From a phage: a stretch of 64,000 nt of DNA. This document shows positions 2,131 to 29,834 of the stretch, in pieces. A program made the translations under genes and the position numbers. The stretch lies in the sequence record PZ496581.1. The stretch is one strand, 5' to 3'. Within the stretch, counting starts at the first letter, position 1, and every line of letters starts with the position of its first letter. The notes beneath the pieces are model-generated. The model had not been told where the DNA came from and ran no database searches. It saw only the letters and a list, made by a program, of their open reading frames with translations.

Positions 2131-3287
2131 TCCGGGTACCTCAAAGCGTCATCAGAGTTAGTTATATCAATAATAGATATAGAGTTTTCTGCTAACCCGT
2201 TTTTAGATAATTGACGTTTATAATATCTTTCACAATATGTACACGTCGTCCCGCAGATTTCATTAGCACAATCGAAATCTGGATGTCTGAACCACCTTTT
2301 TTCTAAAAAGCCATCTAACAAAGAGGTTTCAATATTTACTGTATGTGAAAACTCAGTTTCGTTTTCAAGAGTGAAAATAGTCTCTAAAGGCTTCCACAGT
2401 TCTAACAAATTACCTTCAAACTTTTCAGAAGCGTATGCTTCAAGAACTTTCAAAATGTAGTCTGTGCTACCTGTACGTCCTGAAACTTTGAATTGAGTGA
2501 TACCAATATCATTATAAAGTTTCAAATCTTGAGGACGAACAAAACGAGTTCTCAACCAGTTAAATGGGTCTGTATCACGAGCTTTAATACAGTGCTGCAT
2601 AGGATATCCGTTTAAGGATTTAGCATCATCAGCTGTAACATCAGTACTATGGAAAATATAGCAAGAGTCACGATAGCTACAATGTGTTGTATACCCTTTA
2701 CCAGCATTAGAACAGAACTCATTTACAAGAACTTCAAATATTATATTGTTCTTATTGCAAAACTCTGCTGCACGCTTCAGGAAAGAAACTGAACGGTTCT
2801 TATGAATTCCACAGCAGACCTTTTTGATATTATATTGGTCATGCAAGTATTTGATTTGAGTTACAGCATCGACATGTAGAATTGTTGAAACTTCAATCTC
2901 AATGTCTTTATTGACTTCACGAACAATTTCCATAACAACAGGGTTAGCGATAGTAATACGCCATACGCCTATTGACCAAAGATACTGAACATAATCCTGA
3001 ATAGCTTTCTTCTTCCACTCAACTAGTTCTCTTTTTGAACCAGGATTTATCGTGTTGAGTGTATAGTTAAAGCAAATACCTAATTCGTTACAACGTTTAA
3101 CGTAATCTTCTAACATCTTTTTGTCAACGTCAGGAAGCCTAAAATCAGGTCTGGCTGCTACAAAAGCCATTTCTCTTGTAGAGCCGTATACTTCATTTAT
3201 CAAGCTATTAGGATAAGTTTTATTGAGCTCTACGATTTTATCAAGAAGAGCTAAATCAAAATTCGTTCCGATTTTAAAAGTATTCAT
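2127..3287 (-). CDS. Cys-rich enzyme of unknown function, 386 aa (C-terminal CX4CX3CX2C cluster)
   Basis: ATG at 3287; long ORF inside the sugar cassette; metal-binding-like Cys cluster CANEICGTTCTYC. Confidence 0.6.
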   Translation of the reverse strand: MNTFKIGTNFDLALLDKIVELNKTYPNSLINEVYGSTREMAFVAARPDFRLPDVDKKMLEDYVKRCNELGICFNYTLNTINPGSKRELVEWKKKAIQDYVQYLWSIGVWRITIANPVVMEIVREVNKDIEIEVSTILHVDAVTQIKYLHDQYNIKKVCCGIHKNRSVSFLKRAAEFCNKNNIIFEVLVNEFCSNAGKGYTTHCSYRDSCYIFHSTDVTADDAKSLNGYPMQHCIKARDTDPFNWLRTRFVRPQDLKLYNDIGITQFKVSGRTGSTDYILKVLEAYASEKFEGNLLELWKPLETIFTLENETEFSHTVNIETSLLDGFLEKRWFRHPDFDCANEICGTTCTYCERYYKRQLSKNGLAENSISIIDITNSDDALRYPE

Positions 3288-3347
3288 TTTTTTTGCATCT
3301 CGCGTTAATTGATGTGATGGTTTTTTTTGCAGGTCTTACTTAAATTA

Positions 3348-3734
3348 TTATAGATTCGGTTTATATGATTTAAATGTTTCGAATTCGCCTTTATTCATAA
3401 GAGCTTTGAATTCGTCAGGACGCATAGCTTTGTCGTCGATAATCCAATCATATACTGGTTTATGTGTTAGCAAATTATGGTACTTCAAACCAATGTTTTC
3501 CAAGTTCTGAATCAGACTTGGGAGAATGTCAATTGCTATACGACCAGGACCTACTGACTTCATACCACGAGCAGTGTAAAGCGTTATGGTATGCCCTGCA
3601 TCATACAGGGCATTAATGGCAGACACCATTTCGACGTCTGGTTTGAAGTTCACGTAATCACGATTGTTATTCCATTCCGTGATGCAATCATCGACATCAA
3701 AACAAAGATTAAGCATGTTTTCTACACGGTGCAT
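3348..3734 (-). CDS. HAD-superfamily phosphatase, about 128 aa
   Basis: FDVDDC (motif I), TLYTARG (II), HKP (III), WIIDDK (IV); ATG at 3734 overlaps upstream stop (TAATG). Confidence 0.7.
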   Translation of the reverse strand: MHRVENMLNLCFDVDDCITEWNNNRDYVNFKPDVEMVSAINALYDAGHTITLYTARGMKSVGPGRIAIDILPSLIQNLENIGLKYHNLLTHKPVYDWIIDDKAMRPDEFKALMNKGEFETFKSYKPNL

Positions 3735-5419
3735 TAGATTCGTTCCCATTGATGAGTGATATCGCCACCGATTGGACGATAGGAAACACCAGTTTCTTTA
3801 TCAGTTAGTACCCATTTACCAGGATTTTTTGTAATCAGAGTAGCCGTTACAGGTTCTGCTACGTCATAACTAATAGAGCCGTCCTGAAGTACACGGCCCA
3901 TGTTACGTAATTGCTTAGTCAGAAGTTCCATACCTTTATAATATGCGGCTACCGCTTTAAGTGGATTATTCTTGAAATAACCACCTAATGCAATCCAGAT
4001 AATTGCCACTGCCAAATGATGATACTCGTTAAACGAACTCATCTTTCCATATTTGTAAACTAATGGATTGATGTTAATAGTCACATTACAAGTTGTTTCA
4101 TCAATAGTAAACTGTCCCCAGGTCGGATTAGCATTGAATTCATCATAACCTGAAACAGCATAAAGCACTTTAGCTTCATCATACAATTTTGGCCCGTAAA
4201 TCTTGGTTTCGCCAAAATATCCACGAGGGTCGATAAACTTGACTTCGCCGTTATCAGTAATCATAGTATTACTGAAGTTCGGGTCACCATGAATAACAGA
4301 GTACTGTCCCTGAGAACGGTTATGATAACGAATAAGATGTTCTAAAGCTTGTTTCAACATTGGCTTCAGACGTCCAATCTTAGTGTAGTTCACATGTGTG
4401 ATTTTACCAAATGAATCAATCAATGGTTGAATGCTTTCACAACGATCAATAACTTTCGTATAGAATTCTTTAGTGAAATCACGACGAACAGTTTCAGGAC
4501 TTACAAAATAAGTGTCTGTGCTGAATTTCAGTGCATCTAAAATTGCATCAACAATTTGTGGACGAGCAAGACTTGATTTGGATTTAATATATTCAAATGC
4601 TGGCTTACCTTTAATGCGTTCCATTTCAAAGTTATTTTCATTAACAGAAACTAACTGAGGAACTGAATCTGATTTCACTTTAAGATACCACGAAATCTCA
4701 TCTTTCTGAAGAGCTCGTCCCTGTTCGGTTAATGCGAATTTAGTTACAGTTTCTTCACCAATTTCAACTGCATTAAAACTACGATTAAGTTCACGAACTT
4801 CATGAGCTTTTTCAAGTTTAGGCATATCACCTAAATCAATTAGATTCATAAGCTCTGATTTATTGAATGCGCTGGCGTAAAGGAATTCTACGAAATCACG
4901 TCCTTTGCAGTATTCATGAATTTCTTCATCAGTAGAACCCATATAGAATTCCCAGTCTTTGAACTGATAAATTCCTACAACATTACCACCTGTTGAACCT
5001 ACGTTAGTGATATTTTCACCGTCGAAATTATATCGACATTCGTCACCCTTAACATAGATTGCGTTAACATTCCAAGACCATGAACCAAAATCAGGAATAA
5101 TATCACACCAGTTAACAATTACATTATGGCCGTCTAAATCTTTGTGTAATTTAGCAAGAGCATAAGCAGAACCATACGCTTCATCAACTGTACGAATAGT
5201 CACATTGAACCCTTCTTGCTCACAATAAGCTCGAACAGTTTCAGCAAATTTTGAATGAACTACTACAATAATTTCATCTGCGCCAAGGTCAGAATAAATT
5301 GTATACAAATTGCTCAGAATAGTGTCTTGTTTATAATTCACAAGAACTTTTGGAATATGATGCGTTATTGGATACAAACGAGTTGCCAGTCCAGCACCAA
5401 GAATAACAGCTTTTTTCAT
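3734..5419 (-). CDS. bifunctional sugar-1-phosphate nucleotidyltransferase (N-term) / APH-type sugar kinase (C-term), 561 aa
   Basis: N-term ILGAGLATRLYPIT matches the RmlA/GlmU-type GxGTRL motif; C-term IHGDPNFSN...FIDPRG matches the Brenner kinase motif; ATG 5419 with GAGGA SD. Confidence 0.85.
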   Translation of the reverse strand: MKKAVILGAGLATRLYPITHHIPKVLVNYKQDTILSNLYTIYSDLGADEIIVVVHSKFAETVRAYCEQEGFNVTIRTVDEAYGSAYALAKLHKDLDGHNVIVNWCDIIPDFGSWSWNVNAIYVKGDECRYNFDGENITNVGSTGGNVVGIYQFKDWEFYMGSTDEEIHEYCKGRDFVEFLYASAFNKSELMNLIDLGDMPKLEKAHEVRELNRSFNAVEIGEETVTKFALTEQGRALQKDEISWYLKVKSDSVPQLVSVNENNFEMERIKGKPAFEYIKSKSSLARPQIVDAILDALKFSTDTYFVSPETVRRDFTKEFYTKVIDRCESIQPLIDSFGKITHVNYTKIGRLKPMLKQALEHLIRYHNRSQGQYSVIHGDPNFSNTMITDNGEVKFIDPRGYFGETKIYGPKLYDEAKVLYAVSGYDEFNANPTWGQFTIDETTCNVTININPLVYKYGKMSSFNEYHHLAVAIIWIALGGYFKNNPLKAVAAYYKGMELLTKQLRNMGRVLQDGSISYDVAEPVTATLITKNPGKWVLTDKETGVSYRPIGGDITHQWERI

Positions 5420-5460: not shown

Positions 5461-5604
5461 CTAGTTAAAGCATTCATACTTTGCTTGTAGTCCAATCATA
5501 ATCCATCCAATTACAAGTGTTGGAATCATTACCGGAGCCGTTAAGCTCCAGTAGATAGTCATGACAAGCATCAATAGTAAAAGTCCTATTGTTATTGCTT
5601 TCAT
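5461..5604 (-). CDS. small hydrophobic membrane protein, 46 aa (below ORF-track cutoff)
   Basis: Own translation MKAITIGLLLLMLVMTIYWSLTAPVMIPTLVIGWIMIGLQAKYECFN; ATGA overlap with SIS gene stop. Confidence 0.4.
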   Translation of the reverse strand: MKAITIGLLLLMLVMTIYWSLTAPVMIPTLVIGWIMIGLQAKYECFN

Positions 5605-6236
5605 TGTTCGCCTCGTAACATGGCACCTAGTGCACCGCCTGGATGGAACTTAAGGAAATCATTAGAGGTAAATCCACGTTCAGACGAAAGGTTGATAGCA
5701 AACGTATCGATAAGTGCTAACAACAATGTAGTGGACATCGTCGGAGCTAAAGAGTTCTCGTCAACTTCTACCGCGATACCGGTGCAGAACGTATAATCAA
5801 AAAGAGCTTCGTATTCTTGTGGAATGTCAGGGTTACAATGTAACAGAATCTGTTTAACCTGAGGACGAATCATACGAAGATGTTTAGCAACACCTATCAT
5901 TTCTTCAGTCTTACCAGAACGACTGATGTGAACTAATACATCATTAGGTGCAATAAATCCTGCGTCACCATGAGAATAATGCCCGGTGTTCAAATACATG
6001 CTAGGAATACCTAGTGAAGCAAAAGTCTCGGAAGCTTTAGTTGCGATATTAGCATTCTTACCAACACCTGTAATAATTACCCGGCTTTCATAATTACTAA
6101 GTCCAGGGCGTCGAAGAGTTTCTAGAATAGCATTATAACGAGCAGGGTTTTGACTAATTACTTTAGCCATAGTGGCAAGAGATGAAGCTTGTTTTACGAT
6201 TGCGTCAATAGCGATAGTAATAGGAGTAGTTTTCAT
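5601..6236 (-). CDS. SIS-domain sugar-phosphate isomerase (KdsD/GutQ-like arabinose-5-phosphate isomerase candidate), 211 aa
   Basis: ITGVGKNANIATKASETFASLGIPS...HGD...ISRSGKTEE matches the SIS phosphosugar-binding pattern. Confidence 0.8.
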   Translation of the reverse strand: MKTTPITIAIDAIVKQASSLATMAKVISQNPARYNAILETLRRPGLSNYESRVIITGVGKNANIATKASETFASLGIPSMYLNTGHYSHGDAGFIAPNDVLVHISRSGKTEEMIGVAKHLRMIRPQVKQILLHCNPDIPQEYEALFDYTFCTGIAVEVDENSLAPTMSTTLLLALIDTFAINLSSERGFTSNDFLKFHPGGALGAMLRGEQ

Positions 6237-6276: not shown

Positions 6277-8988
6277 TCAAAAATCAAACATATCGAACAG
6301 AGATGCTTTCTTCTCGTAATCGAGTTTAGCTGCTGATGTGAATCCTTCAAGTGGTTTAATAAATGTCTTCTCAAGGAGAACAGTGTAGTCCATCCAATGA
6401 AGTACATCGTCTTTAATTAAATCTGTGATTTCAGTACCAGAAGGCCATGCGATACATTTATCACCGAATGGGTTTCCTTCACGTAAAGGCAGAACATATA
6501 CTTTTTCACCTTCTACAACTTGCGGTGCATCGATATTACCTTTGATAGCCCGGTTATACGTCAGAATTCCACGAATATGGAACGGGCATTTGGGACCAGG
6601 GAATCCACCGACGTCATATTTAGCAATGTTATTCGCAGAAGATACCGACGCGATGCTAATATAATTCAACTGACGGAATTCTTTTTCAAACTCTTTAAAA
6701 TATTCTTGTAATGATTCTTCACCTTCCTGAAGCATACGACGAATACATTCCTTAAGAGCTTTCTGTACTGCTTTAGGAGTCGAAGATTTCTGTGTTTCGA
6801 GACCCATGATTTTAAGCTTAGGTTCAGCGTATCTGGTTCCTTCCATATCCCATACATTCAAGGCATAACGTTTCTTACCTGTCCAAAATCCGCCAATACC
6901 TTTAGAACCAAGCGGAGGCCCAGCGATAGCTTCTCGGTCCATGAACATTAAGTGTTGTTTATTGTTCATGTATTCACACATTTCACGGAAACCTCTATCA
7001 ATAGCTGGTTCCATACGTTCACGTGCAAACTTATCTAAGAAGTCTACCCAATGGTTGGTATCACGGAATTTAGATTCACCAACCTTATCGATAATTTTAT
7101 CGGCAGATACGTAAATAGAGTCTGTATCACCATAAAGAACGAAAGCTTCACCTTCTGTACCACAAACTTCATTCAGATATTCATTAACTTTACGTTCAAT
7201 CCACTGTAAAGCCATTTGTCCGAATGTTGTGATTGCAGTAGCATTACGCAAATCATAATAACGGAACCAAACGTTTCCAAGTGCACCATAAAGTGAGTTG
7301 ATGAGCAATTTACGGTTAATTTGTGCAGTCATACCTGCAACTTCAGTACGTTGAGCTCTAAACAACATTTCATTAAGAGATTTAGCAGACAACTTTTTAA
7401 TCTTTTCTTTAATCTCATCGCTGAAGTCGAAACGATAATCAACATCTAATGGTTCGTCAACAGAAAGATTAGGATTATGCAATGCCTCTTTAATTATTTC
7501 ACCATTACGTTGAGCTGCAAGCATGTAACCTTTATGTTCTTTACGTTGATTAAAGACCTTAGTGATTTCAGTTGGAACTACACCATCACGGTCTTTATAA
7601 TACATCATGCCGTTAGGAGAACAACTGTACACATCTGAAGGACGTTCAGCGATTGCGTTAATATAATCATGCAATGGAGCTACTTTAAACGTTCCTGCTA
7701 TTGTTTCCGGGCTAATATTCACTTGGCGAATAATACTTGGATACAGAGATGTAAGGTCGAAACTCATTACATATTTGTATCGATTTGGAATAGGTTCCTT
7801 AACAAAAGCGCCAGGATAAGGTTGAACCGGGTGAGAACGACCTTGTGGAATCACCTTGTTCTGTTCTTTAAGGCTATTAAAAATAATAGCATCCCATGTT
7901 TTAATTGGGCCAAACACAGATTGAATCTGTATCTTAGCATAATAACCCATGTCCAAACTCAAGTTGATGAACTGACGCTTAGCATCAATTTGCAATACAC
8001 GATACACATCGATAATGTTATAAGAAATATATCGTTGGTGATTGCTTTCACGAAGTTTAGAAATAGGGCCGTCATATTTCAGTTTACCAACGTTCAATTC
8101 AAATTCTGAAATGTAATCCAGAGAATACGATGGTTGATTGGTAAAAGAGAATTTTTTGTAAAGGTCAATGTAATCAAGAACAGAGATACCGAACAATGTA
8201 ATGATTTCACGAGAACCATACATGTTTTCGATAACTTTAACACGAGTTTTACGATGTGGTGATAAACGTTTCGCAGTAGATTCGCCAAAAATATTCTTGA
8301 TTCGGTTATACACATATGGAATATCGAATGACTCAACGTTCCATCCAGTCAAAATGACAGGAGTTTTCTGTTGCCAGAAGTTGAGATATTCCATCAACAA
8401 TTCTTTTTCGTTATCGAACGGTATATAAATGATTTTATCGATAATTTCGGATGGAACTTCATCACCACCTTGTTCTTGAAGCTTAGCCGCAATTTCGATA
8501 GACCATTCTTCTACATTACCATACGGAGAATTCAATAGATCAAATACGTAGAACCTGTCGTCAATTGAGTCATAATGGGTGATAGCATCAATCGGATGTT
8601 TTGCTTGTGATGGCTCAGGGAACCCATCCGGAGATGTTACTTCGATGTCGAAGTTAGCCACACGAATTTTTGTATGGTCGTATTTGATTTCATAGTTATA
8701 AGTGTCAGACAAATACGCCAATTTGAAATCGTCCATACCAAGTGCTTCAAGTCCGATATCTTCCATGCGTTTAATCCATTGGGAGGCATCACGCATATTA
8801 GCGAACAACTTACGAGTACACGGCTTACCGTAGATATCGAAATATTTCGTAGCCTGACTTTCTGGACAATGAGCAAACAGTGATGGTTTATATTCTACTT
8901 CACGAGTACGTTCACGGCCATTAGAATCGATGTAACGTTCAAAAATTGAATCACCAATCTGTTCAACCGTTAAGTAAAATTCTTTCAT
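6277..8988 (-). CDS. 43: DNA polymerase gp43 (family B), 903 aa
   Basis: Near-identity to T4/RB69 gp43 as recalled; exo motifs FDIE, NIIDV; YGDTDS polymerase motif. Confidence 0.97.
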   Translation of the reverse strand: MKEFYLTVEQIGDSIFERYIDSNGRERTREVEYKPSLFAHCPESQATKYFDIYGKPCTRKLFANMRDASQWIKRMEDIGLEALGMDDFKLAYLSDTYNYEIKYDHTKIRVANFDIEVTSPDGFPEPSQAKHPIDAITHYDSIDDRFYVFDLLNSPYGNVEEWSIEIAAKLQEQGGDEVPSEIIDKIIYIPFDNEKELLMEYLNFWQQKTPVILTGWNVESFDIPYVYNRIKNIFGESTAKRLSPHRKTRVKVIENMYGSREIITLFGISVLDYIDLYKKFSFTNQPSYSLDYISEFELNVGKLKYDGPISKLRESNHQRYISYNIIDVYRVLQIDAKRQFINLSLDMGYYAKIQIQSVFGPIKTWDAIIFNSLKEQNKVIPQGRSHPVQPYPGAFVKEPIPNRYKYVMSFDLTSLYPSIIRQVNISPETIAGTFKVAPLHDYINAIAERPSDVYSCSPNGMMYYKDRDGVVPTEITKVFNQRKEHKGYMLAAQRNGEIIKEALHNPNLSVDEPLDVDYRFDFSDEIKEKIKKLSAKSLNEMLFRAQRTEVAGMTAQINRKLLINSLYGALGNVWFRYYDLRNATAITTFGQMALQWIERKVNEYLNEVCGTEGEAFVLYGDTDSIYVSADKIIDKVGESKFRDTNHWVDFLDKFARERMEPAIDRGFREMCEYMNNKQHLMFMDREAIAGPPLGSKGIGGFWTGKKRYALNVWDMEGTRYAEPKLKIMGLETQKSSTPKAVQKALKECIRRMLQEGEESLQEYFKEFEKEFRQLNYISIASVSSANNIAKYDVGGFPGPKCPFHIRGILTYNRAIKGNIDAPQVVEGEKVYVLPLREGNPFGDKCIAWPSGTEITDLIKDDVLHWMDYTVLLEKTFIKPLEGFTSAAKLDYEKKASLFDMFDF

Positions 8989-12444: not shown

Positions 12445-14133
12445 TTATGAAACAGTCATTACCGTAAATCGTCCAACTTTGCTCATTTGAAGATGTTGTC
12501 CATAACGTTGAGGGTCATGGTCTCGATGAGAGATAATGAACACGTTAGTATTTTGTAAACTTCCAAGAATAGTATCTATAGCCTTAACAGCTTCAGAATC
12601 TACAGCGCCGTCAAAAACCTCATCAAGAATCAACGTGTTGATTTTAACACCAGAGACCTTTTCAGCAATATCTCGCCATGTAAACAACAATGCGATATCG
12701 ATACGCGCTTTTTCGCCTTGACTAAATGAAGCATAACTAAAATCTTCACGGCCACGTGATTTTATAGATTCATTGAATTCTTCGTCAATAGAAAACACGT
12801 AATCAGCTTCCATGATTTTAAGATAATGGTTAATCTGCTTGTTGAACAGAGGCACATATTTTTTAATGATAGCACCTTTAATACCAGAATCTTTTAACAT
12901 ATCTGTGATAATACCACGATGGTATTTTTCAAGAACGATATCTGATTTTGTTTTAATGATTTTATCAAGTTCTTTTTGAAGCAAAGCTATCTCATCGGCA
13001 TGGTCGATAAATTCAGCCGAGGCTTGTTCTATTGCAGCTTTAACTTTCTTAGCTTTATCAATAGTGGCAATCATTGCTTGTTTCTTGGTACGAATATCAG
13101 ATGCAAGGTCCTGTTTAGTCTTAACATTAGCTCTATATTCGTCCACTAGGACACTCAGATTATCTCTGTGACATGTAAGTTGCTCGAATGAGTGATTACA
13201 TTCGTGAAGCTTATCGGTAATCTTAGAGACAATAGGATCACCCTGGTGCAACTGTGATGCACAAGTAGGACATGTACCACCATCATGATACATCTTAATA
13301 ACTTTGTTATATGAGTCAATTTTAGATTTAATCAAGAATGCTTCTTGTCCGATCTTGTTGAACGCCTCAGTAGGGTCTTCGTCAAGAACGATATTAAGTA
13401 GACGCTCGTTAGCTTCTTCAATTTCTGCTTTTAATGAACGAGCTTCTTTGGCTAGGTCGTCATACATATTCTGTAGACGCGCTACATTATCACCAGATAA
13501 TTTCTTTTGACGTTCGATATTCTCGTTATAAATCTTAATTTGTTGGATAACACCATCTTTCTTGGCATCGAGAACTTGTCCCTGGGAATTAAGTTCTCGA
13601 ACTTGAGACTTATTGATTTTATCCATTTCAGCGAGTGTGCCGACTTCTAAAAGGTCTTCGACAAGTTTTCTACGAGCAGGGGTGCTAAGAGCCATGAAAG
13701 GGGTATACCCTGCCGTCCCAAGCACAACGATTTGTTTAAAAGACGCGTATGACATTCCGATGCTACGTTCAAATTCTTCTTGGAAGTCACGACTGCTGGC
13801 AGATTCATCAAGACGAACACCGTCAACGGAGATTTCGAAAATATTGGGCTTTTGGCCACGTCTAATGAAGTATTTTTTATCATCGAATTCCATCCAAAGC
13901 TCAACTAAGAGCTCTTTCTTGTTCGTGCTATTAATGATTTGTCCTTTCTTAACATCACGAAATGGTTTACCGAAAAGTCCGAAAGTAATGGCTTCTAACA
14001 TCGTAGATTTACCACCGCCATTTTTACCAGTGATTAATGTCTTTTGGACTTTATCTAATTGGATATCAATAGGATTCCCACCTACCGACATGATGTTTTG
14101 ATAACGAACACGATTTAATTTAAATGATTTCAT
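12445..14133 (-). CDS. 46: recombination endonuclease subunit gp46 (Rad50/SbcC-like ATPase)
   Basis: Walker A GKNGGGKST; coiled-coil middle; 562 aa. Confidence 0.93.
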   Translation of the reverse strand: MKSFKLNRVRYQNIMSVGGNPIDIQLDKVQKTLITGKNGGGKSTMLEAITFGLFGKPFRDVKKGQIINSTNKKELLVELWMEFDDKKYFIRRGQKPNIFEISVDGVRLDESASSRDFQEEFERSIGMSYASFKQIVVLGTAGYTPFMALSTPARRKLVEDLLEVGTLAEMDKINKSQVRELNSQGQVLDAKKDGVIQQIKIYNENIERQKKLSGDNVARLQNMYDDLAKEARSLKAEIEEANERLLNIVLDEDPTEAFNKIGQEAFLIKSKIDSYNKVIKMYHDGGTCPTCASQLHQGDPIVSKITDKLHECNHSFEQLTCHRDNLSVLVDEYRANVKTKQDLASDIRTKKQAMIATIDKAKKVKAAIEQASAEFIDHADEIALLQKELDKIIKTKSDIVLEKYHRGIITDMLKDSGIKGAIIKKYVPLFNKQINHYLKIMEADYVFSIDEEFNESIKSRGREDFSYASFSQGEKARIDIALLFTWRDIAEKVSGVKINTLILDEVFDGAVDSEAVKAIDTILGSLQNTNVFIISHRDHDPQRYGQHLQMSKVGRFTVMTVS

Positions 14134-14384
14134 ATGTATTCTCTTCGAATGAAGTCCTCTACATATTTTAACATGTCATCTCTATCAGCAAAATATTCAT
14201 CTAGTTCCGCATACATAACAACACCTGGTGCATACTCACAGGTAACATACATTGTTCCAAAGAAACGAGGAGTTGATTCCTCGTAATTCTCAGTCCATTC
14301 AACGATACCAATATAACCGTCACCAATACTAAATTCATGACGATGGATTTCATAATCAGTCTTCGTCATTATACGCATCCTCAA
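14130..14384 (-). CDS. hypothetical protein, 84 aa
   Basis: ORF track; between 46 and 47. Confidence 0.5.
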   Translation of the reverse strand: MRMRIMTKTDYEIHRHEFSIGDGYIGIVEWTENYEESTPRFFGTMYVTCEYAPGVVMYAELDEYFADRDDMLKYVEDFIRREYI

Positions 14385-14613
14385 TACACGCTTCAGCCAT
14401 TTTAAGAATAGAGCCGGGAGTATCGTTGTCCATTATATTAAAGCTAAATTCAATAGCCCAGTCGGTGCAGACATGAACTGCTTTAACTTCATTGCCTTCA
14501 ACGCGTAATGGCTCAATCCAATACTTGATGGTGTTCTCGAATCCATCATCATCTTTAACGTCTATTTCAACTTCAAGCCCGAGCCCAGCATTGTTAAATT
14601 CATCTAAAGTCAT
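14356..14613 (-). CDS. hypothetical protein, 85 aa
   Basis: ORF track; between 46 and 47. Confidence 0.5.
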   Translation of the reverse strand: MTLDEFNNAGLGLEVEIDVKDDDGFENTIKYWIEPLRVEGNEVKAVHVCTDWAIEFSFNIMDNDTPGSILKMAEACIEDAYNDED

Positions 14614-15629
14614 TGTGTTGCCTCAATATAAAGTTCGTTGGAATATTTGACCAGCGCTTCTCTGTCTTCGTCTGAGATATCTGGAATCGCGTCAATATAT
14701 TCTTTAATGATATCTTGAAGTGATTTAATCTCGATTTCCTGGTCATCATCAGATTCAACACTGTTATCAACTTTAGAAACCATACGAAGAGAGTGAACTA
14801 CTTTTTCAAGTTCAGATTCAAACTTAGTCAACTCTGAATCAATTTCTGATACTATAACACGTACGGCTAGATTAGTATAATCAGAATAATTAATTTTGCC
14901 TTTAAACGGATAAGTGATTCGTCGATGCCATGTTGTTTCATTAGGAATAAATTCCATACGTTCAACATCAGTGTCAAATACCCAGAATCCGCGTGGGTCG
15001 TTCTCATCGCCTGCAGTAAGGGTCCATGGTGTCCCAATATATTTGACGTTAGCAGCTTCAGAGATTGTGTGGAAGTGGCCGGACCAGACTTGTTTATAGG
15101 TCTTTAAGAAATCAGGTTCAAGCCCATGAGACTTCATTCCTTTATAGAAATAGAAGCCATTTAATTCCCAGTGACCAACACAATATGCGGCAGAAGAAGT
15201 CTTGATGTGCTCTAAGATTTCACCTGTATTTTCTTCACACATCCATGGAATGATATCAATCAGACATCCGTCAAAATCTACAGTAGTTGGATGTTCGTAA
15301 ATAGTAAAGTTTTCAAATTGAGTTAACAATTCAGAAACAGTGTTAGGTGTTATTGTATTCTTAAACGCCATGTCATGGTTTCCTATCGTGACATGAACGT
15401 GAATGCCTGCTTTAGAAATCATATCAACGATTTCACGATTGAATTCCATTGTACGATGTGTTATTGCTTTACGGACGTCAAACCAATCGCCGTACTGAAT
15501 CCAAGTTTTAATCCCGTGTTTCTTAGAGTATTCAATTGCTTGACGAATACCATCACGTTGAATATCTTGAATCCATGGGTCGTCTTGTTTGACTCCGATA
15601 TGGAAGTCGCCTAAGTGCAAAATTTTCAT
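14610..15629 (-). CDS. 47: recombination endonuclease subunit gp47 (Mre11/SbcD-like)
   Basis: MKILHLGDFHIG phosphoesterase motif I, GNHD motif; 339 aa. Confidence 0.93.
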   Translation of the reverse strand: MKILHLGDFHIGVKQDDPWIQDIQRDGIRQAIEYSKKHGIKTWIQYGDWFDVRKAITHRTMEFNREIVDMISKAGIHVHVTIGNHDMAFKNTITPNTVSELLTQFENFTIYEHPTTVDFDGCLIDIIPWMCEENTGEILEHIKTSSAAYCVGHWELNGFYFYKGMKSHGLEPDFLKTYKQVWSGHFHTISEAANVKYIGTPWTLTAGDENDPRGFWVFDTDVERMEFIPNETTWHRRITYPFKGKINYSDYTNLAVRVIVSEIDSELTKFESELEKVVHSLRMVSKVDNSVESDDDQEIEIKSLQDIIKEYIDAIPDISDEDREALVKYSNELYIEATQ

Positions 15630-15673
15630 ATTATTTCCTCATTAGTTAATTCATTCTATCATCCGTTTATAAA

Positions 15674-15700
15674 GCAAAAAAGGAACTCCGAAGAGTTCCT
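15674..15700 (-). terminator. rho-independent terminator (AGGAACUC-UUCG-GAGUUCCU plus U-tract)
   Basis: Hairpin 15681-15700 followed on minus strand by TTTTTTGC. Confidence 0.6.
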
Positions 15701-15911
15701 ATCCACATAGTACACCGTACAGAGGCTCATTTGAACTTTTAAATCGAATGGGCTTGTACGTAATAGTTCCTTCGGCTTTAGCTTTATCATAAGACTCTTT
15801 AAAACGTCTCATTCTTTCTGCTTTGCCTTTACGGATTTTATCGAAATTTTCAGAAGTCGGGATGTTCGTCATGCATAAGCACCTCTCAGAAAATGCCTAA
15901 ATCAATTTCTC

Positions 15912-16118
15912 TCATCGTTTCCACCATTTCTTAACTTGAAATGAATCGACCCACACGAGTTGTTTTGGGTCTGCCTTTACAATAGGCGGACAAATTTCTG
16001 TAATAGAACCGTCGTGATATTCCTTTTCAGAAATTTTAACACAAAGAGGACCTCCCAATTTAAGGGTGAACCCTGCGTTCAGCTTCAGACGTTTAAACTT
16101 TGTTTGAACTAGCGCCAT
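15912..16118 (-). CDS. hypothetical protein
   Basis: ORF track, start trimmed to ATG 16118. Confidence 0.4.
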   Translation of the reverse strand: MALVQTKFKRLKLNAGFTLKLGGPLCVKISEKEYHDGSITEICPPIVKADPKQLVWVDSFQVKKWWKR

Positions 16119-16416
16119 TAATGATGTCCTCAATAGCCTGACGAGTAGTAACCCACTGGATTTTAATTAACTTGTCATTATATGGTTGTCGTAGAATATC
16201 CCGAGATTTCTTAATAGCATATTCGTAAGCTTCGAAGTTGTTTTGAATTGCTGCTTCTTGAGCATGAGCATAAAGACGGTTTAGTTCAAAACGATTCTTT
16301 TTAAGAATCTTTTCGGATTTTTTACGTGCTTCAGCTTCATTTTTCTTTTGGATTTCTTGTAGCATTTTAGCTACTGCATCTTCTGCTTCTTTATTTTCAA
16401 TAATCTCGGTAGTCAT
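16093..16416 (-). CDS. hypothetical protein, 107 aa
   Basis: ORF track. Confidence 0.5.
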   Translation of the reverse strand: MTTEIIENKEAEDAVAKMLQEIQKKNEAEARKKSEKILKKNRFELNRLYAHAQEAAIQNNFEAYEYAIKKSRDILRQPYNDKLIKIQWVTTRQAIEDIINGASSNKV

Positions 16417-16417
16417 A

Positions 16418-16633
16418 TTATCTCATTAAATTAAAATAAAAACGTCCATCCTCTTCAATACAGAACTCGTACTCAACCGGAGTCCCATTTATCGAAAATG
16501 ACACGTCATGTGGGTTCAAAGGGTCGATGTCAAAATTAATTTTAAATTCTCGACCCAACAGTTTTACCAAATAAGGGATTGCTTCGTCAAAAGGTTCTTC
16601 TAAGTAGTTAGAGATGTCAATTGTCATCCTCAT
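16418..16633 (-). CDS. hypothetical protein
   Basis: ORF track, start trimmed to avoid overlap with gene 55. Confidence 0.45.
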
Positions 16634-17192
16634 ATAAAAAATCCAAACTAGGCGAATCGCTAACAACTTCCTTCTTTTCAGCCCCAGGAGCTTTATAAGC
16701 GGATTCTTCATAATGCGTCATTTTATCGTAGATGTCTTGAATAAACGTTTCATCTACCAACGCTACCATATCATCGTCATGACTGTCGTAGACATTATGA
16801 ACGAAGTAACTATATTTCTTTGCAACTTCCTTACGTTCTTTTTTGATACGTTGGACAAAAGCATTAAAACAAGCTCGAGTTATGTATGCATGTGGGTTAT
16901 TGTACTTAGTTTCGTCGAAATTATGAAGTCCCTTAATAGAGGCTTCAATCCCATCTGCAATCATCTCCTGTTTCCAAGACTGGGTATATCCTGAAAAGTT
17001 GAAACGTTTGGACAGGCCTTCGGCGATAAGCATAATTGCTAAACCGATGGTATCATTCTGACGAATAATTTTGTTTGGGTCTTTATTATTTAAGAGCTCC
17101 TTTTTCCACTCGATTATAGCGGCGAGAAGCTCTTTATTATTCACATAGTTATTTTTAGGTTTTTGTTCAGTCATAAGTACCTCTTGGCTCAA
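16617..17192 (-). CDS. 55: late-transcription sigma factor gp55
   Basis: [20 protein letters not shown]...[23 protein letters not shown] matches T4 gp55 as recalled. Confidence 0.93.
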
Positions 17193-17246
17193 TTCATAGG
17201 TCTATTATATCATAATATTTAGAGACCTATCTTAAAGCACGAGATA

Positions 17247-17516
17247 CTATCGGAGCAAACAATAAGCCTGAAACACTTTTTCCATTAAACGTTTGAACTC
17301 ATGGATATCGATATAAAGCTCAGTAAGACCGGCATTATAAAGAAAATCTAAAAAGTTCTCATGTGTTTCGTTATAGTCGCCTTCGTTTAATTGAGATACA
17401 TGAGTTTCCCAAAAACCAACACCTTTAACGAATGGAAAATACGTGACTTTCATGTATTCGTCAACATAAAATTCGCCCAGCTTTTCTTCAGTTATACTGA
17501 TTCGAGTTAATTTCAT
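17247..17516 (-). CDS. hypothetical protein, 89 aa
   Basis: ORF track. Confidence 0.5.
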   Translation of the reverse strand: MKLTRISITEEKLGEFYVDEYMKVTYFPFVKGVGFWETHVSQLNEGDYNETHENFLDFLYNAGLTELYIDIHEFKRLMEKVFQAYCLLR

Positions 17517-17740
17517 TCTAGTTCCTTTGCTGCTTCAAGAGCAGCATCCAGCGAATCAAATTGGTCAACGAAATCAATATTCAACGCATCGTCAACCGTA
17601 GCATATAACCACCATTGTTTGAATTCGTATTCTAGAATAAATCCAGGACCTTCAATCTGAGGAAGACCTAGACTATTTGTACCAACTTCGTAACCAGCTA
17701 GACGCAGGTCATTAATCAAAGTTTCTGTTAATACGCTCAT
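17513..17740 (-). CDS. hypothetical protein, 75 aa
   Basis: ORF track. Confidence 0.5.
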   Translation of the reverse strand: MSVLTETLINDLRLAGYEVGTNSLGLPQIEGPGFILEYEFKQWWLYATVDDALNIDFVDQFDSLDAALEAAKELE

Positions 17741-18117
17741 TTTACCGCCTTAACAATTTTCAGGTCAACGAATTTTTTCTTACGTTGATTTTTCATACGA
17801 CGGATAGTCTTTTCAGAGATTTCATGTTTCTGATAAGCTTTAGATTCAACACCAAATGCAGCAACGTCAAATTCAGAAAGAATATATTGTACTAGAATTT
17901 CACGAATAGAATTACGTCCAATTTTCTGGTCGTGTTTTTGCATGATTTCATAAAGACGGAATTCCCACGCGTCAAGAACTTGAGGAGTAACAATATTGCC
18001 GGATTCCAGAAGAGCAACAACTTTATCGAAAGCGAAAGAATTAACTACGTTTTTGATTTTAGTAGACATATTATTTTCCTCGGTTATTTTATTATCCAAC
18101 GAGAGAATTATACTCAT
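17737..18117 (-). CDS. hypothetical protein, 126 aa
   Basis: ORF track. Confidence 0.5.
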   Translation of the reverse strand: MSIILSLDNKITEENNMSTKIKNVVNSFAFDKVVALLESGNIVTPQVLDAWEFRLYEIMQKHDQKIGRNSIREILVQYILSEFDVAAFGVESKAYQKHEISEKTIRRMKNQRKKKFVDLKIVKAVK

Positions 18118-18639: not shown

Positions 18640-18770
18640 TTTATATTCCAGACCCCATTTTCATCGATGAACTTAATCCAGTCATTTACAGACCATTTAG
18701 TTGTATCACCCTTTGGATTAACATTTAAAGTATATAATCCCTGCTTAAAAAGCATTCGTTTGATATTCAT
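18636..18770 (-). CDS. hypothetical small protein, 44 aa
   Basis: Trimmed to ATG 18770 with GAGG SD. Confidence 0.35.
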   Translation of the reverse strand: MNIKRMLFKQGLYTLNVNPKGDTTKWSVNDWIKFIDENGVWNIK

Positions 18771-18777: not shown

Positions 18778-19071
18778 TCAACTGTAACGATAACATTCGT
18801 TAGCTTTACGTTTGGCTTCAGTATGAGAAGTATTATAATCATAATCTTCTTTACTGTAAACATCTTTTTTCAACTTACGAACTTCTTTGCGGAGTTGTCG
18901 ATTCATTTCATTCTTGACTTCAGAATCAACGCCTTTCATACGTTTCCATTTATCTGAGCGGAAAATGTTTTCAACCATGTCTTTGTGGCTAACACCGTCA
19001 GGAGCTTTACGTTTACCAAAATAGTCATAATCGCGAACTTTCAAATCTTTACGACGATACGTTTTACCCAT
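18778..19071 (-). CDS. hypothetical basic protein, 97 aa
   Basis: Trimmed to ATG 19071 with GAGG SD. Confidence 0.45.
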   Translation of the reverse strand: MGKTYRRKDLKVRDYDYFGKRKAPDGVSHKDMVENIFRSDKWKRMKGVDSEVKNEMNRQLRKEVRKLKKDVYSKEDYDYNTSHTEAKRKANECYRYS

Positions 19072-19122
19072 AAGTACCTCAGAGGTTGATTGATACAACG
19101 CGTTTGATAAAATTCACTTCAC

Positions 19123-19329
19123 TTACTGAAAGGTCTCTTTAAGACCGATTGATTCTAAACGCTGAATAAAAGTCAACATTGGGATATAGTCCCAATGTGT
19201 TTTAGACGTTTGATAAGTACGGACGCCATTAGCAATTTCAACGTTCAAATCGGAAATGGTAATGAATATCGGACGTTCGTTATTTACATTAAGAGATAGA
19301 ACAACTTTCTTCGAATTCAGACTAATCAT
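19123..19329 (-). CDS. hypothetical protein
   Basis: Trimmed to ATG 19329 with GAGGA SD. Confidence 0.4.
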   Translation of the reverse strand: MISLNSKKVVLSLNVNNERPIFITISDLNVEIANGVRTYQTSKTHWDYIPMLTFIQRLESIGLKETFQ

Positions 19330-19494
19330 TTTATTTTCCTCTATAGTAGATGGTTTAATCTTAACACGTCTATTGAGGATGTAAACTGTTTTATGAAAAT
19401 ATTTTCGATTTGAGAGGGGCACAAGGAGATAGTGAAGTGAAGATTCCAATGGATTATATTAGAAATGGGATAAAGAAGACCAGGCGGCACCTGG

Positions 19495-19803
19495 TCAATC
19501 TTCTATGATATCAGAGTCATATCCTAATGAAATCAAGGACTTTTTAAACTCTGCAATATTCTTTTGTTTCTTATCATTTAAAAATATGACAGGATAACGA
19601 ATATTAAGTGAAGTGAATCCTGCACGTTTAGCAAGAGATACGATTAAAGGACGGTCATATTCAATCTTACCATTATTAGTGAGGACTTTATAAAATGTAT
19701 AAGGAGCATTGAGCTCCTTTAAAAGTTTTGTAACAGTATAACATCCTGGACAACGTCCTACTTCTTCAGGGATGCCATAAATTTCAATCTTGTTGTGTTC
19801 CAC
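19495..19803 (-). CDS. nrdH: glutaredoxin/NrdH-like redoxin (CPGC motif), 102 aa
   Basis: CxxC motif RCPGCYT near N-terminus; position upstream of nrdG; apparent GTG start. Confidence 0.55.
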   Translation of the reverse strand: MEHNKIEIYGIPEEVGRCPGCYTVTKLLKELNAPYTFYKVLTNNGKIEYDRPLIVSLAKRAGFTSLNIRYPVIFLNDKKQKNIAEFKKSLISLGYDSDIIED

Positions 19804-27985: not shown

Positions 27986-28011
27986 GTTTTACCTCCAGTA
28001 GTTGATAGGTC

Positions 28012-28040
28012 TATAATAACATAACCATAGACCTTGTAAA
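28012..28040 (-). promoter_or_regulatory. early-type promoter with inverted repeat flanking the -10
   Basis: Minus strand GTTTACaaggtctatggttaTGTTATTATagacct. Confidence 0.5.
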
Positions 28041-28043
28041 CAG

Positions 28044-28331
28044 CTAAAAGAAACTTTTTTCGGTATTTTTTCCACTGAACCAAACAGACTTCGGTATTTT
28101 CTGTAATTTTTCAGATTTAAGTTTCTCTTCCTTCTCTTTCTTATATACATCCTTGTCGTACTGGAGCATCTCTATGGCATTCTTTTGCAAACGATCTAAG
28201 GTAATTAAGGCTTTAGTTTTTCCTTTCAAGGAAGAGTCCTGGCGAACCTCCTCGCTATATTGCATTGTAGAACTAACCATACGATGAGCATAGAGTTCGA
28301 CTGCGGCTTTAATTTTTTGCATAAAATCCAT
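28044..28331 (-). CDS. hypothetical protein, 95 aa
   Basis: ORF track. Confidence 0.45.
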   Translation of the reverse strand: MDFMQKIKAAVELYAHRMVSSTMQYSEEVRQDSSLKGKTKALITLDRLQKNAIEMLQYDKDVYKKEKEEKLKSEKLQKIPKSVWFSGKNTEKSFF

Positions 28332-28469
28332 AACATATCCTCTTTGATTTGTACATCATTATTTTTAAATATTTCTATGCCCTCAGTAGGTTCCTGGTGT
28401 CCTTCTTTGAGGTAAGCCATATGATTATTCATCTTTATAGCTTTTGTTACCTCAGAACTTCCTATAAGC

Positions 28470-29471
28470 TTATTTCAGTAAAGTTACTTCAGAGATTTCC
28501 TCCCAACCATCTTTATCAGTTGAAATAAAATCTGCTACATAAAGAGCCGTACGTAATGATACATTGCGAAGACGAGATACGTTAGCCTTCATCCAGGACA
28601 ATGCTTTATACGTTTCTGCATCCGTCAGACCACGTTTCTGCATCATGTCAGTAGATAATATTACATCTTCAACTCGAACCATAATCTCTTCATTAGAGTG
28701 TACTCCAAGGTCGAGATACACTGAACGAGATACTAAAGCTTGAAGGTGTGGAGCAAGTTTCGAACCCCGTTCTAACTCTTTATCGATATCAACGTTTGTA
28801 ATGAAAACGATAGTACCTTCAAACACAAATTCTTTATCAATACCCTTATCATCGAGATAAGATGACGCAGTGCTCCAACAAACTTTGCGTTTATCTCCGG
28901 TATCTAATGCTGCTTTAAGAAGGTTCAAGATATCCATATCCGAGAATACGTCAACGTCATCGATTAAGAGAACGCTGTCTGCATCACGGTTGAGCCAAAG
29001 TTGTTCGTAAAGGCCAATACCAGAGATTTTACCATTAATGCTTTTGTATTTGATGAAACCATTATCATTAGCATTATTAAGTGCTTTATCCAGAGAATAC
29101 GTCTTACCAATACCAGCTGCACCTGAAATAATGAGTGAACGAATTTTGCCATCGATAATGCCATTCGTCATCATGTTCATTACTTTAAAGCGTTTGTTGA
29201 TACGAGTTTTCATATCTTCAGTGCTTTCAACAACTGCAACTGGTGATGTCTCAACTCCTTCCATTACGATGTCTGATTTGAAGACCCATACTCCACGTTC
29301 AGAACCATCAATCATAACGAAAATTTTACCATCACCTAAGTGGGAACATTCAGGATTAAGCTTTGCTGGGAACCAGGTCTTTGTGGCAACATAAGAACCA
29401 GAGATTTCGTTATTACGATAGATACCTTTTTTGATTTGAACGTTGAACATTTTATTCTCCAATTTACTCAT
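28470..29471 (-). CDS. P-loop AAA-type ATPase, 333 aa
   Basis: Walker A GAAGIGKT; Walker B LLIDDVD. Confidence 0.7.
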   Translation of the reverse strand: MSKLENKMFNVQIKKGIYRNNEISGSYVATKTWFPAKLNPECSHLGDGKIFVMIDGSERGVWVFKSDIVMEGVETSPVAVVESTEDMKTRINKRFKVMNMMTNGIIDGKIRSLIISGAAGIGKTYSLDKALNNANDNGFIKYKSINGKISGIGLYEQLWLNRDADSVLLIDDVDVFSDMDILNLLKAALDTGDKRKVCWSTASSYLDDKGIDKEFVFEGTIVFITNVDIDKELERGSKLAPHLQALVSRSVYLDLGVHSNEEIMVRVEDVILSTDMMQKRGLTDAETYKALSWMKANVSRLRNVSLRTALYVADFISTDKDGWEEISEVTLLK

Positions 29472-29487
29472 TTCGTTTCGATAGGTC

Positions 29488-29516
29488 TATAATAACATAT
29501 CCTAAAAGCATGTACA
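29488..29516 (-). promoter_or_regulatory. early-type promoter
   Basis: Minus strand TGTACA...TGTTATTAT about 20 nt upstream of the ATPase ATG. Confidence 0.45.
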
Positions 29517-29547
29517 CTACTTTTTAAAAATATTTTAACCCCCTAAA

Positions 29548-29564
29548 GGGACCCGAAGGTCCCC
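29548..29564 (-). terminator. GGGACC-UUCG-GGUCCC hairpin (terminator-like)
   Basis: Stable tetraloop hairpin downstream of ORF 29625..29834. Confidence 0.4.
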
Positions 29565-29624
29565 ACATTTACTTATCGCACTTAGCAACATAATTAGGCA
29601 TATCACAGAATACAGAGCGAGTAA

Positions 29625-29834
29625 CTACTCGGCCCTTTGACCATGCTTCAGTTGCTTGTCCGGCCGTGCTATTAATATAGCTTGATTTAAGTTCTCAATA
29701 CCCTGAGAATGTGATGCATTTACCGAACCATTGGAAGGCCCAGAAGACTGGTTACCACCAGCTCCTGCACCTGTGGTAGCACCAACAGAGAATGCCATCA
29801 TTACTGCGAATAAACCAATTACTAATTTTTTCAT
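29625..29834 (-). CDS. small secreted/lipoprotein-like protein, 69 aa
   Basis: N-terminal signal-peptide-like MKKLVIGLFAVMMAFSVGA then Gly/Ser/Asn-rich tail. Confidence 0.45.
   Translation of the reverse strand: MKKLVIGLFAVMMAFSVGATTGAGAGGNQSSGPSNGSVNASHSQGIENLNQAILIARPDKQLKHGQRAE

Follow-up and report, generated by a model that had tools for sequence, protein, structure and literature searches.

In phage T4 (NC_000866), the genes between 47 and 55 are ordered 47, 47.1, a-gt, mobB, a-gt.2 to a-gt.5, and 55. The sequence analyzed here, a 64,000-nucleotide stretch of phage DNA (PZ496581.1; the window), lacks the alpha-glucosyltransferase gene at that place, which raises the question of what its absence says about the modification of the phage DNA. 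A preliminary description, made from the sequence alone, had taken the absence as support for a different DNA modification chemistry. We put a probability of about 0.9 on the reading that this is the a-gt-less interval of RB69-like Mosigvirus phages and that an arabinosyl-5-hydroxycytosine pathway takes the place of glucosylation.

Relationship to RB69-like phages

By sequence comparison, the window belongs to an RB69-like (Mosigvirus) T-even phage. Nucleotide identity was 99.3% to the Mosigvirus phage NBG1 over window positions 14000 to 18000 and 98.25% to RB69 (NC_004928) across the 47-55 interval, where gene order and layout are identical. Overall identity to RB69, NBG1, and HY126 was 98 to 99%, and the closest overall record for positions 28000 to 47000 was HY126, at 93% coverage. 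No genome in the phage-record collection was collinear with the entire 64-kb window, which is mosaic relative to RB69-group genomes outside the interval and the gene cluster at its left end. An Rfam search of the whole window returned three tRNAs only, none of them in the interval. In NBG1, tblastn with T4 proteins showed that imm and imm.1 are relocated.

Gene content between genes 47 and 55

The features of the interval and its two boundary genes are as follows, with percentages giving amino acid identity.

14610 to 15629, minus strand: gene 47, SbcD-like recombination nuclease subunit, low-coordinate boundary (76% to T4 gp47 over 339 aa; 99.4% to RB69 gp47)
15653 to 15676, minus strand: predicted MotA-type middle promoter for gene 47 (TGCTTTA at 15676 to 15670, 11-nt spacer, -10 element TAGAAT at 15658 to 15653)
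15681 to 15700, minus strand: intrinsic terminator from a terminator scan, directly after the a-gt.2 stop codon (8-bp stem, UUCG loop, T-run)
15699 to 15872, minus strand: a-gt.2 homolog, 57 aa, DUF5486 (76% to T4 a-gt.2, E = 3e-24; 95% to RB69; PF17588, E = 4.5e-28; phrog_2140)
15912 to 16118, minus strand: a-gt.3 homolog, 68 aa, ATG start (71% to T4 a-gt.3, E = 2e-29; 100% to RB69; phrog_1648)
16093 to 16416, minus strand: a-gt.4 homolog, 107 aa, DUF2654 (58% to T4 a-gt.4, E = 2e-32; 100% to RB69; PF10849, E = 1e-27)
16418 to 16633, minus strand: a-gt.5 homolog, 71 aa, starting MRMTIDIS, DUF5491 (47% to T4 a-gt.5, E = 1e-14; 100% to RB69; PF17595)
16617 to 17174, minus strand: gene 55, late sigma factor, high-coordinate boundary (91% to T4 gp55; 99.5% to RB69 gp55)

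The synteny comparison with T4 that had been suggested earlier showed that exactly one block, comprising 47.1, a-gt, and mobB (about 2.25 kb), is missing. The two phages share genes 47 and 55, the four a-gt.N ORFs, and a terminator followed by a MotA box after a-gt.2, the T4 hairpin at that site being homologous. In T4, the block is flanked by two copies of a stem-loop/MotA-box module, whereas the window has one copy. A mobB-like gene was detected elsewhere in the window by tblastn with T4 mobB.

The preliminary description had listed a terminator and three small ORFs of 73 to 107 aa. The terminator stands, and the NBG1 record annotates one at the same a-gt.2 site, but homology to T4 gives four conserved ORFs and not three. 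The 57-aa a-gt.2 had been overlooked, and the 73-aa and 97-aa lengths belong to mechanical ORFs that begin at upstream TTG or ATG codons, the 73-aa version of a-gt.3 being a TTG extension. The homology, order, and overlaps of a-gt.2 to a-gt.5 all agree with T4, down to the 17 nt that the a-gt.5 homolog shares with the end of gene 55, and the layout recurs in RB69 and PEi26. A Pfam scan assigned no family to the a-gt.3 homolog, the a-gt.4 homolog gave no solved structural relative, and the literature on the functions of a-gt.2 to a-gt.5 yielded one 2006 comparative-genomics paper and nothing further.

Between the terminator and gene 47, which has a ribosome binding site (GAGGA) at 15640 to 15636, the MotA-type element probably functions as a promoter. 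A pattern search for a MotA box with a -10 element matched at 15 sites in the window, 12 of which lie on the minus strand, where 3.45 would be expected in all, and the module upstream of gene 47 is kept in RB69, T4, Roth21, and PEi26. A terminator-like site at 15969 to 15991 falls within a-gt.3 but on the plus strand, the wrong one for this gene, and was set aside as a chance occurrence, since sites of the plus-strand type numbered 2, compared with 1.7 in shuffled sequences. Taken together, the interval would be the ordinary a-gt-less form of the T-even early/middle region, in which gene 55 is followed by the translationally packed a-gt.5, a-gt.4, a-gt.3, and a-gt.2 and then by the intrinsic terminator, and a MotA-dependent middle promoter past the terminator would restart transcription into genes 47 and 46.

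Search for glucosyltransferase genes

A tblastn search with T4 a-gt (400 aa) found nothing between 15630 and 16640, bearing out the claim that no alpha-glucosyltransferase is encoded there, and its best match in the whole window had an E value of 0.53. In the window and in NBG1, respectively, the best matches had E values of 1.9 and 2.6 for T4 b-gt and of 1.4 and 0.76 for RB27 ba-gt, a beta-glucosyl-HMC-alpha-glucosyltransferase of the T2 type. A search for glucosyltransferase homologs, also proposed earlier, thus found none in the 64-kb window or in the complete genome of its relative NBG1 (168,869 bp). The best a-gt match in NBG1 (E = 0.038; 69 aa at 71987 to 72166, in NBG1 DNA with no counterpart in the window) is most likely noise. 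The Pfam models AGT (PF11440) and T4-Gluco-transf matched only the T4 controls, the T4 a-gt control giving an E value of 3e-260 against PF11440, and the interval ORFs matched only DUF5486, DUF2654, and DUF5491. Ten otherwise unassigned window ORFs of at least 180 aa gave zero glycosyltransferase families in Pfam. Thomas et al. (2018, PMC6024577) likewise reported that RB69 lacks a-gt, b-gt, and ba-gt.

A missing a-gt alone is not diagnostic, since Gelderlandvirus and Muldoonvirus phages that glucosylate their DNA lack it at this place too. Small ORFs are all that separates genes 47 and 55 in the Gelderlandvirus CGG4-1, a Salmonella phage, and in Serratia phage Muldoon, and b-gt is encoded by Muldoon and by CGG4-1 relatives, among them STML-198 and Melville. 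Genes 47 and 55 directly adjoin in cyanophages and in other distantly related T4-like phages.

A GT-B protein and a predicted arabinosylation cluster at the left end of the window

The left end of the window encodes a set of proteins that showed 94 to 100% identity to RB69 gp45 to gp55 and contained the expected domains.

233 to 1132, minus strand: 299-aa GT-B glycosyltransferase, putative arabinosyltransferase, directly downstream of the gene-42 homolog in the position of T4 b-gt; equals RB69 gp46:47
1132 to 1848, minus strand: predicted 5-hydroxy-dCMP synthase, a thymidylate synthase (TS) homolog in the gene-42 position (PF00303; 99.2% to RB69 gp48; PDB 9iqc/9ir2/9iqu, E = 8e-161)
2127 to 3287, minus strand: Peptidase-U32-like protein (PF01136, E = 7e-11; 99% to RB69 gp50)
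3348 to 3749, minus strand: HAD-type sugar phosphatase, analog of RB69 gp51 and HY126 AfhF (phrog_1238; 98% to RB69 gp51; role from PMC13326640)
3734 to 5419, minus strand: 561-aa bifunctional sugar-1-phosphate nucleotidylyltransferase (N-terminal) and kinase (C-terminal), analog of RB69 gp52:53 and HY126 AfhE
5601 to 6236, minus strand: arabinose-5-phosphate isomerase, SIS domain (PF01380; phrog_5670, E = 2e-116; 97% to RB69 gp55)

It had been stated that gene 42 lacks a b-gt-like neighbor. For sequence this is correct, as neither T4 b-gt nor RB27 ba-gt matched there, but for fold it is not, as a GT-B ORF adjoins the gene-42 homolog. The modeled product of ORF 233-1132 adopts the GT-B fold, its pair of Rossmann-like domains superposing on those of GT-B enzymes of solved structure, and its nearest structural neighbors are GT4-type enzymes. 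It matched no Pfam family at E values up to 0.1 and no PDB sequence at E values up to 1, having no close solved relative. It has no detectable sequence similarity to T4 AGT (PF11440; PDB 1y6f/1xv5) or b-gt (PF09198) and is shorter than the T4 a-gt and b-gt proteins (299 versus 351 to 400 aa). Going by the literature, it would also differ from them in acceptor, 5-hydroxycytosine (5hoC), and in donor, UDP-arabinofuranose (UDP-Araf). Proteins of the RB69 gp46:47 type are proposed to be the first DNA arabinosyltransferase; for single glycosyltransferases on 5hoC DNA, no activity was reported (NAR paper, PMC13326640).

The product of ORF 1132-1848 showed only 25% identity to T4 gp42. It has the features of a 5-hydroxy-dCMP synthase, namely, the catalytic Cys and, in place of ThyA L143 and N177, a Glu and an Asp, respectively, its E-Y-P-C and L-D-F motifs aligning to ThyA L143/C146 and N177. 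These residues and the near-identity to RB69 gp48, for which 5-hydroxy-dCMP synthase activity has been shown (PMC13326640), identify the gene-42 homolog, at the level of sequence, as a flavin-dependent 5-hydroxy-dCMP synthase and not a dCMP hydroxymethylase.

The genes for UDP-arabinose supply, encoding the arabinose-5-phosphate isomerase, the kinase/uridylyltransferase, and the HAD phosphatase, are all present, with 97 to 100% identity to RB69. The ORF at 3734 to 5419 is intact and 99% identical to RB69 p052 plus p053, and its product matched PF00483 at residues 3 to 99 and, weakly, kinase families at residues 308 to 409. The RB69 record splits gp46/47 and gp52/53, whereas the window has intact 299-aa and 561-aa ORFs. 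A second arabinosyltransferase, of the RB69 gp3 or PDB 9iqz type, was not found in the 64-kb window. NBG1 encodes such a protein at 2529 to 3629 (E = 3e-248 to 9iqz); the locus lies beyond the window span in relatives. The Afh pathway of HY126 was reportedly described by He et al. in 2026 in Nat Chem Biol, with PDB entries 9iqc/9ir2/9iqu and 9iqz/9ir0. The RB69 splits are sequencing errors according to Lee et al. (2026, PMC13326640), who assigned UDP-arabinofuranose synthesis to the gp52:53/AfhE-type enzyme and entered gp50 as a putative "sugar or heterocycle reductase" (Table 1 of that paper).

Proposed pathway and alternatives

The enzyme activities and DNA chemistry of this particular phage can be projected from its relatives. 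The TS homolog (1132 to 1848) would turn dCMP into 5-hydroxy-dCMP, which would be phosphorylated and then built into DNA. Ribulose-5-phosphate would be converted to UDP-arabinofuranose by the isomerase (5601 to 6236), the kinase/uridylyltransferase (3734 to 5419), and the phosphatase (3348 to 3749). The first arabinose would be added by the GT-B enzyme (233 to 1132) and the second by a glycosyltransferase of the RB69 gp3/HY126 9iqz type, encoded beyond the window. No alpha-glucosyltransferase would be needed because the DNA would contain no hydroxymethylcytosine (hmC) to glucosylate, and the use of arabinose on 5hoC in this phage group would explain why the 47-55 interval is without a-gt. RB69 DNA contains mono- and di-arabosylated 5hoC instead of glucosyl-hmC (PMC13326640; PMC6024577). 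The RB69-like cluster and the arabosyl-5hoC of RB69 uphold the earlier conclusion that the DNA modification chemistry is a different one. The reasoning that led to it was weak in three places: a 47-55 interval without a-gt is not diagnostic, a glycosyltransferase gene does adjoin the gene-42 homolog, and that homolog is not a dCMP hydroxymethylase.

As first put forward, that conclusion implied that no glycosyltransferase occupies the classical T4 positions and that some unrelated chemistry, not yet identified, acts on hmC. In keeping with this version, searches gave no sequence homolog of a-gt, b-gt, or ba-gt and no Pfam family for the 299-aa ORF, but the GT-B fold of the ORF beside the gene-42 homolog refutes it in part, the base is 5hoC and not hmC going by the 99%-identical RB69 enzyme, and the chemistry has already been identified in the literature. 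We consider it improbable. Even less likely is that the 299-aa GT-B protein is a functional analog of a-gt or b-gt that still uses UDP-glucose to glucosylate 5hoC or hmC, with the arabinose genes serving another purpose such as modification of the host envelope, given that RB69 DNA hydrolysates contain arabinose and not glucose (PMC6024577), that arabinosyl-5hoC replaces all C by NMR and MS (PMC13326640), and that the sugar-activation genes are contiguous with the glycosyltransferase and TS homolog genes. A recent, isolate-specific a-gt deletion or an assembly artifact, leaving hmC un- or partly glucosylated as in T4 gt mutants, is hardly credible: the clean edges of the missing block at a repeated stem-loop/promoter module would permit a deletion, but the same a-gt-less interval occurs in 147 phage records (coverage of at least 80%), RB69 included, the layout is common to Kanagawavirus and Tegunavirus, the gene-42 homolog is not a hydroxymethylase, and the window holds a complete arabinosylation cluster.

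Meaning for T-even phages

The biology that the arabinosylation reading invokes is already known. That RB69-type phages lack a-gt, b-gt, and ba-gt has been in the literature since 2018. The replacement chemistry, in which a flavin-dependent TS homolog leads to arabosylated 5hoC, followed in 2025-2026, with crystal structures of near-identical proteins. Chemistry and enzymology are available for RB69, HY126, and DLP3 (Lee et al. 2026, PMC13326640; PMC6024577), and the former paper lists He et al. 2026 (doi 10.1038/s41589-026-02150-z) and Mahler et al. 2025 (doi 10.1016/j.chom.2025.06.005) among its references. For the specialist the gain is small, and the practical use lies in annotation. The modification type should not be inferred from an a-gt-less 47-55 interval alone, and the ORFs that many Mosigvirus records label "dCMP hydroxymethylase" and "hypothetical protein" are better annotated as 5-hydroxy-dCMP synthase and GT-B (putative arabinosyl)transferase, respectively.

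The regulatory modules around a-gt suggest a further, tentative idea. In T4 and in Klebsiella phage Roth21, a-gt is bracketed by two modules, each made of a UUCG stem-loop, a MotA box, and a -10 element, and just one copy occupies that site in the window, RB69, and PEi26, all of which lack a-gt there. The left side of the window copy resembles the upstream copy of T4, and its right side resembles the downstream copy. In Konradin, the hairpin is kept at the site and a MotA box was not detected. The arrangement of a conserved stem-loop and then a promoter, on both sides of a variable a-gt and single where a-gt is absent, is like that of PeSLs, motifs that combine a promoter with a stem-loop and bring about modular shuffling among T4-like phages (PMC2839356, PMC4122927), although PeSLs are defined with early promoters and the promoter here looks MotA dependent, i.e., middle. 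It is possible, if rather doubtful, that a-gt is a PeSL-like mobile cassette, gained and lost by recombination between the regulatory modules. If so, the swapping of DNA modification genes between T-even lineages would be one route to a new type of hypermodification, and a-gt.2 to a-gt.5, which are kept regardless of the sugar used, would have nothing to do with the glucosylation that their names suggest.

Four conserved genes and no alpha-glucosyltransferase gene between genes 47 and 55

The interval between genes 47 and 55 contains four conserved genes arranged as in T4 (a-gt.5, a-gt.4, a-gt.3, a-gt.2), whose products match the T4 proteins with E values of 1e-14 to 2e-32 and are 95 to 100% identical to the same-named RB69 proteins. 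Three of the four fall into Pfam families of unknown function.

Features of the 47-55 interval (window coordinates; percent identity to T4)
14610-15629, minus strand: gene 47, 76% amino acid identity to T4 gp47
15676..15653, minus strand: MotA-box middle-promoter pattern TGCTTTA-11 nt-TAGAAT, directly beyond the terminator
15700..15681, minus strand: terminator motif, 8-bp stem, UUCG loop, and T-run, beginning at the a-gt.2 stop codon
15699-15872: a-gt.2, 57 aa, 76%, DUF5486
15912-16118: a-gt.3, 68 aa, 71%
16093-16416: a-gt.4, 107 aa, 58%, DUF2654
16418-16633: a-gt.5, 71 aa, 47%, DUF5491
16617-17174, minus strand: gene 55, 91%

The preliminary description had placed here a terminator and three ORFs of 73 to 107 aa. 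The terminator motif was indeed present, and is annotated as such in Escherichia phage vB_EcoM_NBG1 (Mosigvirus), but the ORFs number four and are accompanied by a putative promoter; the lengths of 73 and 97 aa came from mechanical ORFs opened at upstream TTG or ATG codons, and the 57-aa a-gt.2 had been overlooked. The promoter sequence follows the MotA-box middle-promoter pattern described for T4. The window contains 15 instances of this pattern, where 3.45 would be expected, and 12 of the 15 are on the early-gene strand; a GAGGA ribosome site precedes the gene 47 ATG.

The reported absence of a-gt from the interval held: T4 a-gt (400 aa, translated from NC_000866) gave no tblastn match there, and its best match anywhere in the window had an E value of 0.53. 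The proposed homolog search was likewise negative for both the window and the complete NBG1 genome (168,869 bp), in which tblastn with T4 a-gt, T4 b-gt, and RB27 ba-gt found no significant match; the best, E 0.038 over 69 aa, lies within a segment absent from the window. The NBG1 annotation lists no glucosyltransferase. None of the tested window ORFs matched the Pfam AGT or T4-Gluco-transf models, which recognized the T4 controls at E values of 3e-260 and 9e-98. Classical glucosyltransferases were likewise not found in RB69 by Thomas et al. 2018 (PMC6024577).

Close relatives of the window

Megablast of window positions 14000-18000 against 50,697 phage records gave 147 records with at least 80% query coverage, among them NBG1, which aligns over the whole query at 99.3% identity. 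Over window 15560-16760 the type Mosigvirus, RB69, aligns without gaps at 98.25% identity. NBG1 is collinear with the window, at about 96 to 98% identity in most aligned blocks and 89 to 95% in four shorter ones, with several indels. None of the records in the collection runs collinear with the window from end to end; HY126 comes nearest, with 93% coverage of 28000-47000, and statements on the rest of the genome therefore draw on relatives. At about 42853-42900 the window lacks about 5.7 kb that NBG1 has at 67803-73519 (genes 128-142, all of them hypothetical), an indel in a hyperplastic region that distinguishes these close relatives. The window carries three minus-strand tRNA genes at 44639-45588 (44639-44711, 45436-45507, and 45517-45588), of which the NBG1 annotation has two only, and between them lies a 223-aa NUMOD3/DUF559-like putative homing endonuclease (44697-45368).

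Alpha-glucosyltransferase as a possible mobile cassette

In T4 the order is 47, 47.1, a-gt, mobB, a-gt.2, a-gt.3, a-gt.4, a-gt.5, 55. DNA homology to the window extends from gene 55 to about 30 nt beyond the stop codon of a-gt.2 and picks up again where gene 47 starts; thus, as the synteny comparison suggested earlier bore out, the window lacks exactly 47.1, a-gt, and mobB, about 2.25 kb. Elsewhere, a 260-aa HNH-type ORF (30836-31618, minus strand), which shares 61% identity with T4 MobB over its first 66 residues and lacks a counterpart at that site in NBG1, is probably a homing endonuclease insertion. An unannotated small membrane ORF resembling 47.1 (MITYLGILSLL...FFSTPDGF...) lies just upstream of gene 47 in Salmonella phage CGG4-1 (about 3361-3504), showing that 47.1 can occur without a-gt.

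The UUCG stem-loop, MotA box, and -10 element form a module (window 15653-15700) that flanks a-gt in T4, with copies at 16570-16630 and 18678-18737; one T4 copy follows a-gt.2 and the other follows a-gt. In Klebsiella phage Roth21, which has a-gt and lacks mobB and 47.1, the module flanks a-gt on both sides (2160-2237 and 3426-3504). The a-gt-less sequences (window, RB69, and PEi26) have a single copy apiece; Konradin retains the hairpin at the module site, with no detectable MotA box. This distribution fits the published proposal that promoter/stem-loop cassettes (PeSLs) mediate modular shuffling in T4-like phages (PMC2839356, PMC4122927). The bracketing of a-gt by module copies, and the single copy where a-gt is missing, suggest that a-gt may be a PeSL-like cassette bounded by duplicated regulatory modules, a connection between PeSLs and a-gt that we infer here.

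The absence of a-gt from this interval is only weakly informative about modification. Of 50,697 phage records, 657 contain a-gt homologs, and these belong essentially to Tequatrovirus-type and Klebsiella-phage lineages. Between 55 and 47, nothing but small ORFs is present in CGG4-1 (Gelderlandvirus) and in Serratia phage Muldoon, and b-gt homologs are encoded by Muldoon itself and by relatives of CGG4-1, STML-198 and Melville among them. The a-gt gene is likewise missing from this position in Tegunavirus, Kanagawavirus, and Lazarusvirus phages. Among distant T4-like phages, cyanophages included, genes 47 and 55 are adjacent, and the gp47 match overlaps the gene annotated as the late sigma factor. 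The genes a-gt.2 to a-gt.5 are conserved whatever the sugar type.

A predicted arabinosyl-5-hydroxycytosine cluster at the left end

Between gene 43 (6277-8988) and the left end, the window carries a block absent from T4, each protein of which is 94 to 100% identical to its RB69 counterpart, from gp55 down to gp45.

Genes of the cluster
5601-6236: SIS-domain arabinose-5-phosphate isomerase
3734-5419: nucleotidyltransferase and kinase fusion, 561 aa
3348-3749: HAD-type phosphatase
2127-3287, minus strand: peptidase-U32-like protein
1891-2130: 79-aa ORF
1132-1848: thymidylate-synthase (TS) homolog
233-1132: 299-aa ORF
1-231: thymidylate-kinase-like protein, first 77 residues

The TS homolog shares only 25% identity with T4 gp42 and matches PDB entries 9iqc/9ir2/9iqu at E 8e-161; its catalytic Cys is retained, and the residues corresponding to ThyA L143 and N177 are Glu and Asp, respectively. 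RB69 gp48 turns dCMP into 5-hydroxy-dCMP in a reaction that uses O2 and a flavin, and in RB69 DNA mono- and di-arabosylated 5-hydroxycytosine replace cytosine, correcting an earlier "arabinosyl-hmC" assignment (Lee et al. 2026, PMC13326640). The peptidase-U32-like gene lies inside this cluster. U32 relatives function in RNA and ubiquinone hydroxylation; the RNA cases are covered by references 65-66 in PMC13326640. The published 5-hydroxylation, however, is the work of the TS homolog.

The RB69 reference record splits gp46/gp47 and gp52/gp53 (3598-4498 and 7095-8781), whereas the window has intact ORFs of 299 and 561 aa, giving independent support to the published claim of RB69 sequencing errors. 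In Mosigvirus, the homologs of imm and imm.1 are located close to the sp gene (NBG1 18899-19577) and not, as in T4, between 42 and 43. This is compatible with the arabinosylation cluster having replaced the 42-43 region wholesale.

The position directly downstream of gene 42, occupied by b-gt in T4, is taken by the 299-aa ORF. A gene with a modelled GT-B fold does adjoin the gene 42 homolog, contrary to the preliminary description, which saw no b-gt-like gene there. The ORF had no match among Pfam families or PDB sequences; its 138 homologs (E ≤ 1e-3) come from T4-like phages of Edwardsiella, Yersinia, Acinetobacter, Providencia, and Serratia and from metagenomes. An AlphaFold2 model (74-sequence alignment) reached a pLDDT of 95.4.

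Structural neighbors of the 299-aa ORF model, with scores
6kih: sucrose-phosphate synthase, 17.2
6n1x: BshA, 16.5
2gej: PimA, 15.8
9iqz: phage HY126 glycosyltransferase, 13.8
1y6f: T4 DNA alpha-glucosyltransferase, 13.0

The window lacks the second arabinosyltransferase, an enzyme of RB69 gp3 type; NBG1 has one, nearly identical to 9iqz.

The proposal of a different modification chemistry was thus right in its conclusion, but the argument from a-gt absence is insufficient alone, since b-gt-encoding Muldoon also lacks a-gt at this site. That the chemistry differs has been known from the literature since 2018, with mechanistic refinement in 2025-2026.
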